From NCBI GenBank assembly GCA_040388415.1, contig JAZKBV010000005.1, positions 3,364 through 67,363 on the forward strand: a stretch of 64,000 nucleotides of DNA. Direction: 5' to 3'. This DNA is from Patescibacteria group bacterium. Its GTDB lineage: Bacteria > Patescibacteriota > Minisyncoccia > Phycocordibacterales > PALSA-1337. Position 1 is the first letter of the stretch; the number at the start of each line of letters is the position of its first letter. Positions 28,043 to 31,929 of this stretch are shown in pieces. Below the pieces are notes generated by a model. The model worked only from the letters and a program-made list of their open reading frames with translations. It searched no databases and was not told where the DNA came from. The position numbers and the translations under genes were made by a program.

Positions 28043-30349
28043 CTACATTTTAATCAGATTTAATGCTTGTTGAACATATGTTTTTAACTCAATATCATTA
28101 ATTGGTGCGCTTCTAGAATTAGTATTATCATGATGATATTTTTTTGAATAATTGTTTAATTCTTTTAGTTCTTGTGCATTCGATGTGAATAATGAAAATT
28201 GTGGATCTATGGGTTTCATTTCAATAATTTTGATCATTTCACCCAAATTATTTGCCTTAATTAAACTACTCATAAATTTATAACCTAAATAGCCTTCGAT
28301 TACACTTCTAATTTTTGATGCTATTTGACGTTTTTGATCATCATTTTGAGTGCCATTAGTGAGATAGTTTTCTAAAATGTAAATACTTTTTACAAAATCA
28401 CTAGAAATTTCCTTATCAAAATCACATTCCTGGATGACATTCGTAGAATGTGCCCTAGAAATTGAAAGGGTTTTAACATTTAAATTTAATTTTAAGCGTT
28501 GAACAGCTTTCTTCATGTCGCAAGCAAAAAATGGGTTATGCGTAAGTACGATTAATTGTTTGACCTTGGGAACTAAATCAGACAAATACTCTACTGTTCG
28601 TTGACTACGGCCTTCATCATGACTAGTTAATGGATCATCAAACACGACAATTTTCTTGGACAGGTCTGGGTCAAGCTCTAATCTAGCAAGAAAAAAAGCT
28701 AGAGCTAAGGAATTTTTGTCCCCTTCACTTAGTGCCTGCTCGAAGCAAATATCATGACCGTTGTTTTCAAATTTAACTAGTTCACCATCAAGAAAAAGTT
28801 CATATTCAGCAACTGGATTAATTGAGGCCCCAACATATCTTCCATTTACACTTTGTCCAAGCATAAAGTCAGTTCCAATCTTCTTTAGATAACCATTAAT
28901 TTTAGGTGCATATTGAGCAAGTATTGTAGCAGTATATCCTTCTAATTCTACCTTCTTAGCATCTTTTTCTTCATTTAATTTTTTTGTTGCAATTAAAACA
29001 GCTAATGCAGCGTCGCAAAGTTTAATATGTTCAGTGGTGAAACGACTTTGAATCACTTTTATCTTTTTAATATTTTCAGAAATTAATTTTGGGTCAGATA
29101 TTTTTTTACTTCTAATAGACTCAATTTGAATATTATGCTTTTCTACAACAATATTATACTCACCTACAAATTTATTTAAACCATCAACGATACTTTTCAG
29201 ATTACTTGAACAATCTTGTGTAGTTAATGGTTCACTAATTTTCCTTTTTAGACATGTATTTATCAAATCAAAATCTTTTTGCAAAATAACAAGACTGGAG
29301 ATATCTAATTTTGGTCTAGGCGTAAGCTGTATATACTGGTTCCAAAATCCGTCTAGTTCCAGGTTAATTGCATCACTTCTTTCCCAACCACTTTGAATTT
29401 TTTCAACAGAAAAATTACCTGCAACTGAAGCTACTTCTCTAATTTTTGAAATTAACTCTTCGTATTCTTTATTAAAATATTGTCTATAAGACTCAAGCAC
29501 ATCGCCGGCGTTTTTTAAATCTTGCATACAAAAGGGACAGTTGTTGTCAGTAATATTTTGTAGACCAAATTTTAACCATTCCTCCACTTCACCAGTGTTT
29601 GAAAATTTTGATTTGTGTTCATCAACCAAATCTAAAAATTGCTTCTGAATTGAGGTAATAGTTGTACTACAAATATTTTTAACGTCTTCGAGTGCAGGAA
29701 TATACTTAATTTCCTCAAATCTTAAGTATTTTTGTTTTGAATGAATTAAATTACTTGCAGCAGAAGTCCTAAATTCATTTTCCGCGCTACTTAACTGAGA
29801 ATCAATTGTTAGATCTGGTTTTAAGTTTAAAAAGTCTCTAAAAGAGATCAATCCTCCTGTAATGCGCTCAATATCCTTCTCAAAGCCACGATTTTGTTGC
29901 ATTAGTTCGCTAATGTCCCTTTTGCATCTTTCAATTTCTGATGTTAATACAACCCCTCTCGCACCGACAATAAATCTATGGAGTTGTTGCTTATGGTCTG
30001 GAGTAATATCAAGTCCAGAATAGATGTTCTCATTTACAAAGAAAGTATCGAATATTTCTATGTCAGAATAAGGTGCTGTCCAGCCTGTCGCAGTGTAACT
30101 AAATGTAACACCTTCGCCTTCAAACAATACTTCTTGGCCAGTGTTACTACCAATACTTTTCCTTTGTTGAATTATGCCTGGGTTATTATCACGCAGTGAA
30201 CGCAAAACAGATGTCAAAGTTGTTTTTCCTTTTCCATTTTCTGCGTATAAAAGCACAACTTTCTCCAATAATCCATTCCAGCCATTTTTTACGGAATCAA
30301 AATCATTAAATCTACCGACGCCACATATTTTGAGAATTTTCTTAATCAT
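28043..30349 (-). CDS. RloC/PrrC-like protein: a Rad50-like ABC ATPase with a coiled-coil insertion and CxxC zinc hook, fused to a C-terminal HEPN-type anticodon-nuclease-like domain
   Basis: Walker A is [12 protein letters not shown]. The CxxC zinc hook is [10 protein letters not shown], about 230 aa into a heptad-rich insert. The ABC signature is [19 protein letters not shown], Walker B/D-loop is [14 protein letters not shown] and the H-loop is LIVLTHN. The C-terminal R-x3-E...H motif reads KIRSVIEG...[10 protein letters not shown] is very low, about 30%. The start codon overlaps the stop of the upstream gene by 1 nt. Confidence 0.65.
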
Positions 30350-30981
30350 TATCGTTCGTTTGAGATAAATATTTCCTTTCCAAGATTATTTGAATCGTAG
30401 CTATGTGAGACTGGAACGTGCAAAATACGCAACCCAACACCTTTCATTATCTCATTTACAATTTGATCCCTTTTTATTCTATCCCACCTTGAGTGTGAAC
30501 GATCGTCTAATTCGATGGCCAAATATGGTTTGTATGCTTTGTCGTATAAAACAAAGTCGATCGATTTAGCTTTAATCAGGTTAAAATCGCGATAATTTGT
30601 CCAATGCTCATTTGAATCAATTGGTTTAACTATTCCAGATAGTGGAACCTGTGACTCAATGTGATAAGTATTACCAACTATGTTCTCTAAAATCTTTAAA
30701 AATTCTTTTTCAGCGTTTGTCACTAAACTTTCTTTTAGAATATAACGTGATTCTGTTGCAACTTCAGTATTTTGTTGTGGGCTAATACTGCTAGTTGGGG
30801 TTATGGTTGTTGCCCGACTTAACTTAAGGTTCGGTCGAGTATTATTTCTATTTTTAAACAATTTCCAGCAATATCTAAAAAAAGAAATTAATATAGTAAA
30901 TATAAGACTGATTAGCGCATCGAAAAAGATATCAAGCGGACCGGCGTTCTTGCCTCTATAATATTTGTAATTTCTCGTCAT
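30349..30981 (-). CDS. Membrane-anchored DUF2726-like protein with a restriction-endonuclease-like fold
   Basis: The N-terminal TM helix is LDIFFDALISLIFTILISFF. The C-terminal block is SIDFVLYDKAYKPYLAIELDDRSHSRWDRIKRDQIVNEIMKGVGLRILHV, which follows the D...E-x-D/H pattern of DUF2726/NERD-type nucleases. Low GC. Confidence 0.55.
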   Translation of the reverse strand: MTRNYKYYRGKNAGPLDIFFDALISLIFTILISFFRYCWKLFKNRNNTRPNLKLSRATTITPTSSISPQQNTEVATESRYILKESLVTNAEKEFLKILENIVGNTYHIESQVPLSGIVKPIDSNEHWTNYRDFNLIKAKSIDFVLYDKAYKPYLAIELDDRSHSRWDRIKRDQIVNEIMKGVGLRILHVPVSHSYDSNNLGKEIFISNER

Positions 30982-31008
30982 TTTTTGATAAATTATAGCA
31001 CCGTACCT

Positions 31009-31929
31009 TTATTTTTTCTTAATTCTAGCAGCAATGGCATTTATAAGTATCTCCTTGAGTTCTTTCTTGGTCGAATATTTATAACACTGATAGTGTCTAA
31101 CGTAAAATTCTGGGGGAAGCTCATCTTTACAGACATAGATTGTTTCAATATTTAAGCCAAACGCAAAACCAGCCTCAAAAAATACACTGCTTCTTGTTCC
31201 TGTAAGATCAACAACCACAAAACGACTTTTTCTTATTTCACCTAAAGCCTTATCCATAATTTTTTCAGGGAAAAGACTATCTTTAATACAGACTGGCATA
31301 TATCCTGCCTCAGTAATTGCTTCTTCCATTGCTGTAATGCTTTCATTCATTGATTCATCAAACCACGCAGCAATAAAACCCTGTTCTGATTCAGAATTTT
31401 CCTTTCCTAACTTATTTCCAAGCTCCCATCCATTGGCAGTTAACGTAATTTTGTAGGCGTATAGTCCATCTGTATTGCTCAGAGGTGCCCAGTGAGCTAG
31501 ATTTTTTTGTTCGAGCATTTTAATCAGAGCCTCAAACTCTTTAGGGTTTTTTGCATAAGCTAAAGGGTAATCATTTTTGCAGTTTACTTCGGTTGATTGA
31601 CCAAAATATTCAATTTTAGCTTTTAATCTCTGCAATAACTTATTTGCTTTTTCGGCGATATCATTTGATTTTGGTACTGGATAGCTATTTTTAAGTGTTT
31701 CAATATTTGTTGTTAAAAACTCTGGAATTTGGCGTTGCTCGTTCAACTCACGAACTAAACCAGATAAAAGATATGCATCATTAGATTCAGGTGTATATCT
31801 TAAACATTCATCGCTAATTTTATATTCACCACAACGAGGACAAATTATTCTGTAAAGATCCCGACTGCTTATGGGGTATATTCCCACATCTTCACCACTT
31901 TTATGACACAAAAAACATTTGGTTGGCAT
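31009..31929 (-). CDS. Zinc-ribbon protein with a C-terminal TIR-like/nucleoside 2-deoxyribosyltransferase-like (flavodoxin-fold) domain
   Basis: The N-terminal CxxC...CxxC is CFLCHK...ICPRCGEY. The C-terminal strand/helix pattern FIAAWFDES...MPVCIKD...FVVVDLTGTRSSVFFEAGFAFGLNIETIYV has a conserved Glu at the position of the TIR/NDT catalytic glutamate. Low GC. The start codon lies 1 nt after the uvrB stop. Confidence 0.45.
   Translation of the reverse strand: MPTKCFLCHKSGEDVGIYPISSRDLYRIICPRCGEYKISDECLRYTPESNDAYLLSGLVRELNEQRQIPEFLTTNIETLKNSYPVPKSNDIAEKANKLLQRLKAKIEYFGQSTEVNCKNDYPLAYAKNPKEFEALIKMLEQKNLAHWAPLSNTDGLYAYKITLTANGWELGNKLGKENSESEQGFIAAWFDESMNESITAMEEAITEAGYMPVCIKDSLFPEKIMDKALGEIRKSRFVVVDLTGTRSSVFFEAGFAFGLNIETIYVCKDELPPEFYVRHYQCYKYSTKKELKEILINAIAARIKKK

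Follow-up and report, generated by a model that had tools for sequence, protein, structure and literature searches.

RloC and PrrC are the described systems closest to the gene studied here. RloC was defined as a protein of 658-897 aa with PrrC-like ATP-binding cassette (ABC) motifs, a helical insert containing one CXXC, and a tail of the form Arg-X3-Glu-X36-52-His, in which Ser often precedes His (Davidov and Kaufmann 2008, PMC2610378). All 72 orthologues listed in that report were screened for exactly these features (Table S1 footnote, PMC2610378), and the protein was named after a 'restriction-linked open reading frame (ORF)' pattern. Characterised representatives are those of Geobacillus kaustophilus (YP_146738) and Acinetobacter baylyi ADP1. 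PrrC is more compact (341-416 aa), is always linked to restriction-modification (R-M) genes and, instead of removing the wobble base, makes a nick in the anticodon loop. Both proteins were assigned to the HEPN superfamily (Anantharaman et al. 2013, PMC3710099). The present work concerns a minus-strand gene at positions 28043-30349 of a 64,000-nucleotide stretch from a Patescibacteria metagenome-assembled genome (MAG; contig JAZKBV010000005.1), referred to as the window. This gene probably encodes a member of the RloC family, with a Rad50-like ATPase, a putative zinc hook and a predicted tRNA-cutting tail.

Such an assignment, to judge from the motifs and homologies described below, would provide a functional name for a gene whose database entry reads simply 'AAA family ATPase'. 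The current understanding of RloC stays unchanged, the gene being a fairly ordinary member of a known family.

RloC features of the window protein

Every feature that defines RloC was found in the window protein, either exactly or nearly so. The layout of the gene is as follows.

28043..30349, minus strand: probable RloC-family gene, 768 aa plus stop codon, ATG start (re-translated coordinates)
30218..30244, minus strand: Walker A (P-loop) AENGKGKTT, residues 36-44, with K42 (pattern match and re-translation)
28877..30001, minus strand: helical (segmented coiled-coil) insert, residues 117-491, splitting the ABC head (DSSP assignment of the AlphaFold2 model, heptad segments, Foldseek)
29528..29539, minus strand: CPFC, residues 271-274, putative zinc-hook half-site (pattern match, conservation)
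28718..28732, minus strand: ABC signature LSEGD, residues 540-544 (pattern match; aligned with LSKGE of PrrC)
28616..28651, minus strand: Walker B and D-loop, residues 567-578 (IVVFDD 567-572; IVVFDDP 567-573), anchor of the hhalign match to PrrC 212-272
28538..28540, minus strand: H-loop (switch) histidine H604 (aligned with PrrC H251)
28046..28423, minus strand: C-terminal all-helical tail, residues 643-768, predicted PrrC/RloC-type (HEPN-like) RNase domain (AlphaFold2 model of the tail)
28295..28309, minus strand: R681-x3-E685 (RSVIE), predicted catalytic Arg and Glu (conservation, anchored hhalign)
28130..28156, minus strand: N732-x2-S735-x3-H739-H740 (NNYSKKYHH), predicted catalytic His motif (conservation, anchored hhalign)

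With 768 aa, the protein falls within the size range of RloC. Its P-loop aligns with that of PrrC, the helical insert comprises 375 residues, and 126 residues follow the head as the tail. The initial annotation had described a single CPFC motif near the middle of the stretch between Walker A and the ABC signature. Pattern matching showed this motif to be the sole CxxC of the protein, and its offset from the midpoint of the 495 residues in question is about 20 residues towards the N-terminus. By themselves, a lone CxxC or an R-x3-E are unremarkable, since chance alone would give about 0.16 CxxC with 11 Cys and R-x3-E occurs four times in the protein; the meaning of both motifs therefore comes from their conservation.

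The RloC-like character proposed in the initial annotation was supported over the full length of the protein by comparison with the nearest of the listed RloC orthologues. Entry 39 of Table S1 is a 770-aa protein of Rhodoferax ferrireducens T118 whose flank is given as 'helicase like' (PMC2610378). By tblastn of a plasmid collection, a 770-aa 'AAA family ATPase' (WP_011458761.1; YP_515976) was located on the T118 plasmid NC_007901.1 (50599-52911), adjoining a helicase-related gene; its size and flank, rather than its accession, identified it as entry 39. In BLASTP, residues 1-766 of the window protein matched this protein (28% identity, E=2e-83), with CPFC on CPFC, IRSVIEG on VRLFLEG, the NNYxxxxHHD motif on LNNYAGRFHHD, and no gap between R-x3-E and HH. 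Accordingly spaced residues are R680, E684 and HH738-739 in the T118 protein, which have the same X53 spacing as their counterparts in the window protein. PDLC04895, a model of the PADLOC candidate single-gene defence PDC-S06, was the best-matching PADLOC model of the T118 protein (8.1e-80) and also matched residues 1-706 of the window protein (2.2e-69). Thus, at least this sub-model of PDC-S06 corresponds to the RloC-family clade.

The published range Arg-X3-Glu-X36-52-His narrowly misses the T118 protein (L087:6001-8313), in which 53 residues separate E684 from H738. An upper limit of 52 is therefore set a little too low, even for the orthologues that its authors listed.

Compared with the characterised RloC proteins, the window protein has the same domain order, a single CXXC, an R-x3-E...H tail and collinear landmarks. 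On the basis of published residue positions (PMC2610378, PMC3458546), the corresponding residues of G. kaustophilus RloC (804 aa) and the window protein (768 aa) are K44 and K42 (Walker A Lys), C291 and C271 (hook Cys), D572 and D572 (Walker B Asp), R692 and R681 (tail Arg), E696 and E685 (tail Glu), and H737 and H739 (tail His). The best local alignment to a text of G. kaustophilus RloC residues 121-540, obtained by optical character recognition (OCR), placed CxxC on CxxC in the hook region with z=4.4, a score reached by none of 300 shuffles; a protein-database search with the OCR text of residues 121-480 gave no match at E<=1e-10. The RloC orthologue of the Shewanella ANA-3 plasmid was not found in a 50-kb stretch of NC_008573.1. 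Three differences from the characterised proteins were noted. The distance from Glu to His is 53-54 residues here but 40 in the Geobacillus enzyme. Ser735 stands three residues before the His (S-x3-HH), whereas 'Ser-His' is common in RloC. Finally, the host here is a Patescibacteria MAG, and tblastn revealed no homologues of HsdM, HsdS, HsdR, Mod or Res in the 64-kb window; a restriction-linked context is shared by part of the clade.

Profile searches pointed to the same family. The Pfam AAA_13 match (2.6e-33) reached profile position 704 of 713 and thus extended into the tail, and AAA_13 and COG4694 ('wobble nucleotide-excising tRNase') are the family names for an RloC assignment. Nothing specific was obtained for the window protein from NCBIfam. 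The protein is 100% identical to the NCBI entry 'MAG: AAA family ATPase [Patescibacteria group bacterium]', and the next-best homologues are 37% identical. Several homologues with 30-36% identity are named 'wobble nucleotide-excising tRNase' by JGI.

To identify relatives, one genome per species was scanned using a 17-sequence alignment, which yielded 250 confirmed matches, of which 80 loci were kept; conservation was counted in 81 distinct clade proteins. The kept loci come from Bacteroidota, Chloroflexota, Bacillota, Pseudomonadota, Planctomycetota, another Patescibacteria genome and methanogenic archaea. C271, P272 and C274 were kept in all 81 proteins and F273 in 79 of them. The ATPase residues K42, D571, D572 and H604 were likewise kept in 81 of 81, with N38 and G41 also invariant; the ABC motifs as a whole, the signature included, showed little or no variation among the relatives. 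In the tail, R681, E685 and H740 were each retained in 79 proteins, E754 in 78, H739 in 77, N732 in 69 and S735 in 61. Apart from C271 and C274, no Cys is invariant among the 81 relatives. As the sole invariant Cys pair, CPFC would be a half-site with two ligands and would depend on a partner, as in a zinc hook. Between Glu and the first His, the clade has most often 53 residues (range 49-67, ignoring two defective or truncated members with values of 0 and 28).

H245 and C445 in the helical insert are moderately conserved (78% and 81%, respectively) and could be extra metal ligands or stalk contacts.

The full-length AlphaFold2 model, based on a 63-sequence alignment, had a mean predicted local distance difference test score (pLDDT) of 88.1 and a predicted template modelling score (pTM) of 0.63. 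Residues 117-491 are nearly all helical in this model, with long helices leaving (117-164) and re-entering (439-491) the head and shorter helices between them. The loop that connects helices 255-264 and 279-291 (residues 265-278) contains CPFC. A heptad-register test, crude and made against shuffles, exceeded the 99th percentile at 134-176, 285-312 and 382-415, and the 95th percentile at 242-269 and 273-343, immediately flanking the hook. A coiled coil around the CxxC, as expected from the initial annotation, is thus indicated by helices of heptad character on both sides of CPFC. The two arms of the insert are unequal (148 and 213 residues) and contain 9 Pro and 15 Gly, which gives a segmented coil and not a smooth rod of Rad50 length. 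Further, the hook-proximal part holds many invariant residues outside the heptad pattern, including W258, G262, F292 and W336, so the insert is more than a plain rod. In Foldseek searches of the PDB with the full-length model, the best matches were heads with coiled coil from SMC, Rad50, cohesin, condensin and Lamassu (E down to 1e-9). The closest solved structures are heads of PtuA or Rad50.

Rad50, SbcC and SMC proteins, as well as LmuB of Lamassu, share with the window protein the head fold, antiparallel helical arms and a distal hook of the CPxC type. They differ from it in their much longer arms, those of the window protein being short and segmented, in their Mre11/SbcD or kleisin partners, and in lacking the extra C-terminal RNase-like domain.

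The tail compared with PrrC and HEPN domains

For comparison of the tail, a PrrC reference was recovered with the help of the published motif 284-KYGDSNKSFSY-294 and the accompanying table of mutated residues (Meineke and Shuman, PMC3025547). A degenerate DNA pattern for KYGDSNKSFSY retrieved 48 metagenome loci. One of these (L115:6195-7385, minus strand, contig SKEE01001222.1) encodes a 396-aa protein that matches 48 of 48 published residue positions of E. coli PrrC, is flanked by hsdM and hsdR, and is recognised by PADLOC as PrrC (1.5e-147). This locus is usable as a PrrC reference where a database copy is unavailable.

Pairwise BLASTP between the window protein and PrrC covered the ATPase motifs only (E=1e-3), much as the RloC triad had become visible in the original report only after 'manual adjustment' (PMC2610378). 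When the region from Walker B to the C-terminus was compared by hhalign, a match of 166 columns was obtained (probability 94.9%, E=4.4e-8). This anchored alignment placed R681 on R320, E685 on E324 and H740 on H356 of PrrC, as well as H739 on S355 and N733 on N352, the tail columns being of low confidence. The Arg, Glu and His which the initial annotation had matched to the catalytic residues of PrrC therefore do fall on those positions in the ATPase-anchored comparison. The lysine-anticodon recognition (LARP) motif is specific to PrrC and not expected in RloC (PMC2610378, Fig. 1 legend); hence it is uninformative that no similarity to it (KYGDSNKSFSY) or to the tRNA-Lys region was found in the window protein by BLASTP or hhalign.

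Taken together, the window protein resembles PrrC in its ABC motifs, in N-x2-S ahead of the His and, going by the low-confidence tail columns of the anchored alignment, apparently in the R/E/H triad, whereas E. coli PrrC (396 aa) is half its size, has no coiled-coil or hook insert, and contains the LARP motif, R349 and H295. PrrC proper was ruled out as an identity for the window protein by the length of 768 aa with a 375-residue insert, the missing hsd linkage and the missing LARP motif.

The initial annotation had further suggested that the tail is a divergent HEPN module on account of the position of its His doublet. The distance from R681 to H739 is indeed 58 residues as stated, but the comparison with about 32 in PrrC had set this Arg-to-His distance against a Glu-to-His distance. 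Like for like, 58 residues compare with 36 in PrrC (R320/H356) and with 45 in G. kaustophilus RloC (R692/H737; PMC2610378). Divergence is a fair description relative to HEPN proteins and PrrC, as N732 takes the place of the Rx4-6H arginine; the spacing and the His doublet, on the other hand, are not peculiar to this gene but the norm in the clade, including T118. The predicted nuclease motif of the clade is slightly rebuilt, with an HH doublet and no Rx4-6H arginine. Like members of the HEPN superfamily in the PrrC/RloC/APECO1_4465 group, the tail is a small all-helical domain placed C-terminal to an SbcC/Rad50-like ABC ATPase, whereas the superfamily has the canonical Rx4-6H. Modelled alone, it gave a pLDDT of 88.4 and a pTM of 0.82; the PDB matches of this model with a template modelling score above 0.5 were HEPN domains only (1wwp, 8xeh_D, 2hsb) but statistically not significant. 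They agree with the published superfamily assignment of PrrC and RloC.

Several observations weigh against an RloC-type tRNase. The mapping of the triad to PrrC depends on the anchoring of the alignment in the ATPase, and the posterior confidence of the tail columns is low. When only the tails were compared by hhalign, the result was not significant (E=0.37); the tail alone had no match in Pfam, and its model had no significant Foldseek match in the PDB (best E=0.25). R349, the Rx4-6H arginine of HEPN proteins, and H295 are essential in PrrC (PMC3025547). At the position of R349 no Arg is found in the clade and the aligned column is variable; within 5-7 residues before H739 or H740 there is no Arg in the window protein, and N732 (85% conserved) stands in that place. 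A conserved counterpart of H295 was not found in the clade either. The spacing of the window protein, X53 from Glu to H739 and X54 to H740, lies just outside the published 36-52. In addition, the window protein departs from its own clade at four tail positions: S678 is R in 54% of the clade, G689 is R, K or H in 86%, Q761 is R or K in 78%, and A762 is T in 83%. The clade has the status of a candidate only in PADLOC, and the RloC status of the T118 orthologue rests on motif screening, not on an assay. A tRNase activity of the window protein and its clade is predicted from the biochemistry of G. kaustophilus RloC and PrrC.

It is conceivable, if rather unlikely, that the protein has the architecture of RloC but carries an RNase of different specificity, directed at another tRNA position, mRNA or rRNA, or an enzyme made poor by AT drift. 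The missing counterparts of R349 and H295 (PMC3025547) would fit such a protein, as would the approximately 23 extra residues between Glu and His relative to PrrC, the loss of clade-typical basic residues at 678, 689 and 761, and the fact that the best relative is only 37% identical. Against this, the core tail residues R681, E685, N732, S735, H739, H740 and E754 are all present, the ORF is intact, the ATPase motifs are all perfect, and the clade has retained the restriction linkage known from PrrC and RloC.

The substitutions at 678, 689, 761 and 762 (about window positions 28064-28318) take basic or polar residues out of the tail encoded by this AT-rich gene and may affect RNA binding.

Genomic context of relatives and predicted mode of action

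The context of the relatives was surveyed in 79 loci by clustering and Pfam annotation of all ORFs within 3 kb of the gene. Neighbours of the R-M type were found in 23 of the 79 loci and included N6_N4 methylase fused to DUF559, HsdR or Res helicases, HsdS and HsdM. The order hsdM-hsdS-X-hsdR was seen at homologue P0013 (locus L003) and also at L032 and L051, and several clade members thus lie between hsdS and hsdR exactly as prrC does. Elsewhere, solitary copies adjoin toxin-antitoxin genes. Members of the clade are frequently located within R-M loci of type I or type III, with type III linkage appearing as common as type I linkage. The pattern from which RloC derived its name is shared by this clade and by PrrC, as at the reference locus L115.

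A type III-like pair, consisting of an N6_N4 DNA methylase and a Res helicase of the SWI2/SNF2 type, lies downstream of the RloC homologue in L012, L014, L015 and L020, and upstream of it in L061, L025 and L043. In L061, the N6_N4 DNA methylase is fused to a DUF559 endonuclease-like domain.

If the window protein acts as described for G. kaustophilus RloC and E. coli PrrC (PMC2610378, PMC3458546, PMC3025547), two protomers would dimerise head to tail through the ATPase. Their two CPFC half-sites would share one Zn2+, and the hook joint would keep the tail RNase silent. DNA binding, above all to ends left when a phage attacks or restriction fails, might act with ATP hydrolysis to rearrange the stalk and hook and so free the RNase. 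The tail would then cut the tRNA anticodon loop by metal-independent transesterification, with R681, E685 and H740 (or H739) presumably doing the chemistry. As RloC excises the wobble nucleotide, the predicted lesion is one that phage tRNA repair would be expected to reverse poorly. Translation would stop and the infection abort.

The low-GC island of the window

Three minus-strand genes, of which the probable rloC gene is the last, lie on a small island of low guanine-plus-cytosine (GC) content.

28043..31929: low-GC island, 3.9 kb, 32-35% GC, between an SPFH gene and uvrB, with three minus-strand genes
31009..31929, minus strand: first island gene, 306 aa, zinc ribbon plus TIR-like or nucleoside-deoxyribosyltransferase-like domain (PADLOC 'Effector TIR' 7.6e-9; Pfam Nuc_deoxyrib_tr 2.5e-4, below cut-off; phage family phrog_16139 3.6e-30)
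30349..30981, minus strand: DUF2726 (PD-(D/E)xK-like) gene, 210 aa, N-terminal hydrophobic segment (Pfam DUF2726 3.6e-25; phage family phrog_14167 1.8e-19)

GC contents are 32.1% for rloC, 33.6% for the DUF2726 gene and 34.7% for the first island gene, compared to 50.1% for the uvrB flank, 52.3% for the SPFH flank and 44.4% for the whole window. At both edges of the island, GC steps sharply from 32-35% to 50-52%. A single nucleotide separates the stop codon of uvrB (31931-33) from position 31929, where the first island gene starts. Together with the sharp GC steps, this indicates that the island was inserted with almost no intergenic DNA. Promoter excess, an intrinsic terminator or notable flanking repeats were not seen around the island. 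The window copy of rloC arrived by horizontal transfer on this AT-rich island. A predicted abortive-infection nuclease of the RloC type has thus reached a Patescibacteria lineage with reduced genomes on a small foreign island, beside two other likely defence genes.

Also unlikely is that the clade as a whole, with its invariant CPFC, R-x3-E-x~53-HH, and N-x2-S-x3-HH in place of R-x2-N-x2-S-H in both bacteria and archaea, represents a functionally distinct RloC-like nuclease whose active site has been rebuilt, whose RNA target differs and which might, in the island, also cooperate with the overlapping DUF2726 gene.

A multi-gene system, in which sensing would fall to the ABC ATPase and the effector role to the DUF2726 protein, the zinc-ribbon TIR-like protein or both, in the manner of HEC-02 (ABC plus NERD), Gabija, Septu or PARIS, is highly improbable. 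The three genes do share one strand of one low-GC island, the DUF2726 stop codon overlaps the rloC start (TAATG), and pairs of an ABC ATPase with a NERD-type nuclease are validated defences (bioRxiv 10.1101/2024.01.29.577857). However, no homologue of the DUF2726 or the zinc-ribbon TIR-like gene was found within 3 kb in any of the 79 loci of relatives by tblastn, blastp clustering or phmmer. The DUF2726 protein had no PADLOC match and the ATPase no HEC match, RloC carries its own effector domain, and tight packing is general here, as the junction with uvrB illustrates. A HEC-02-like ABC and NERD pair was rejected, as profile matches were missing and relatives do not share the neighbouring gene. 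No close relatives of the DUF2726 protein turned up in a metagenome scan. A partnership of the DUF2726 gene with rloC is not supported, although both lie on the same island.

An ATPase of the Rad50/SbcC type for DNA repair or chromosome maintenance, or an AAA_13 protein associated with conjugation, in either case devoid of RNase function, is almost certainly the wrong identity, for while the SMC/Rad50-like head and stalk, the CxxC hook and the adjacency to uvrB recall such proteins, the neighbours are DUF2726 and SPFH genes and not an Mre11/SbcD-type partner nuclease, the stalk is far shorter than that of Rad50, the conserved extra C-terminal domain with invariant R/E/HH is lacking in Rad50 and SbcC (PMC2610378), and the gene is foreign (32% vs 50% GC), so that uvrB marks the insertion site and not an operon.

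The first gene of the island is probably a separate defence or NADase-type gene. A double-CxxC zinc ribbon forms the N-terminal part of its 306-aa product and a TIR-like or nucleoside 2-deoxyribosyltransferase-like domain the C-terminal part, and the phrog_16139 match covers nearly the full length of the product.

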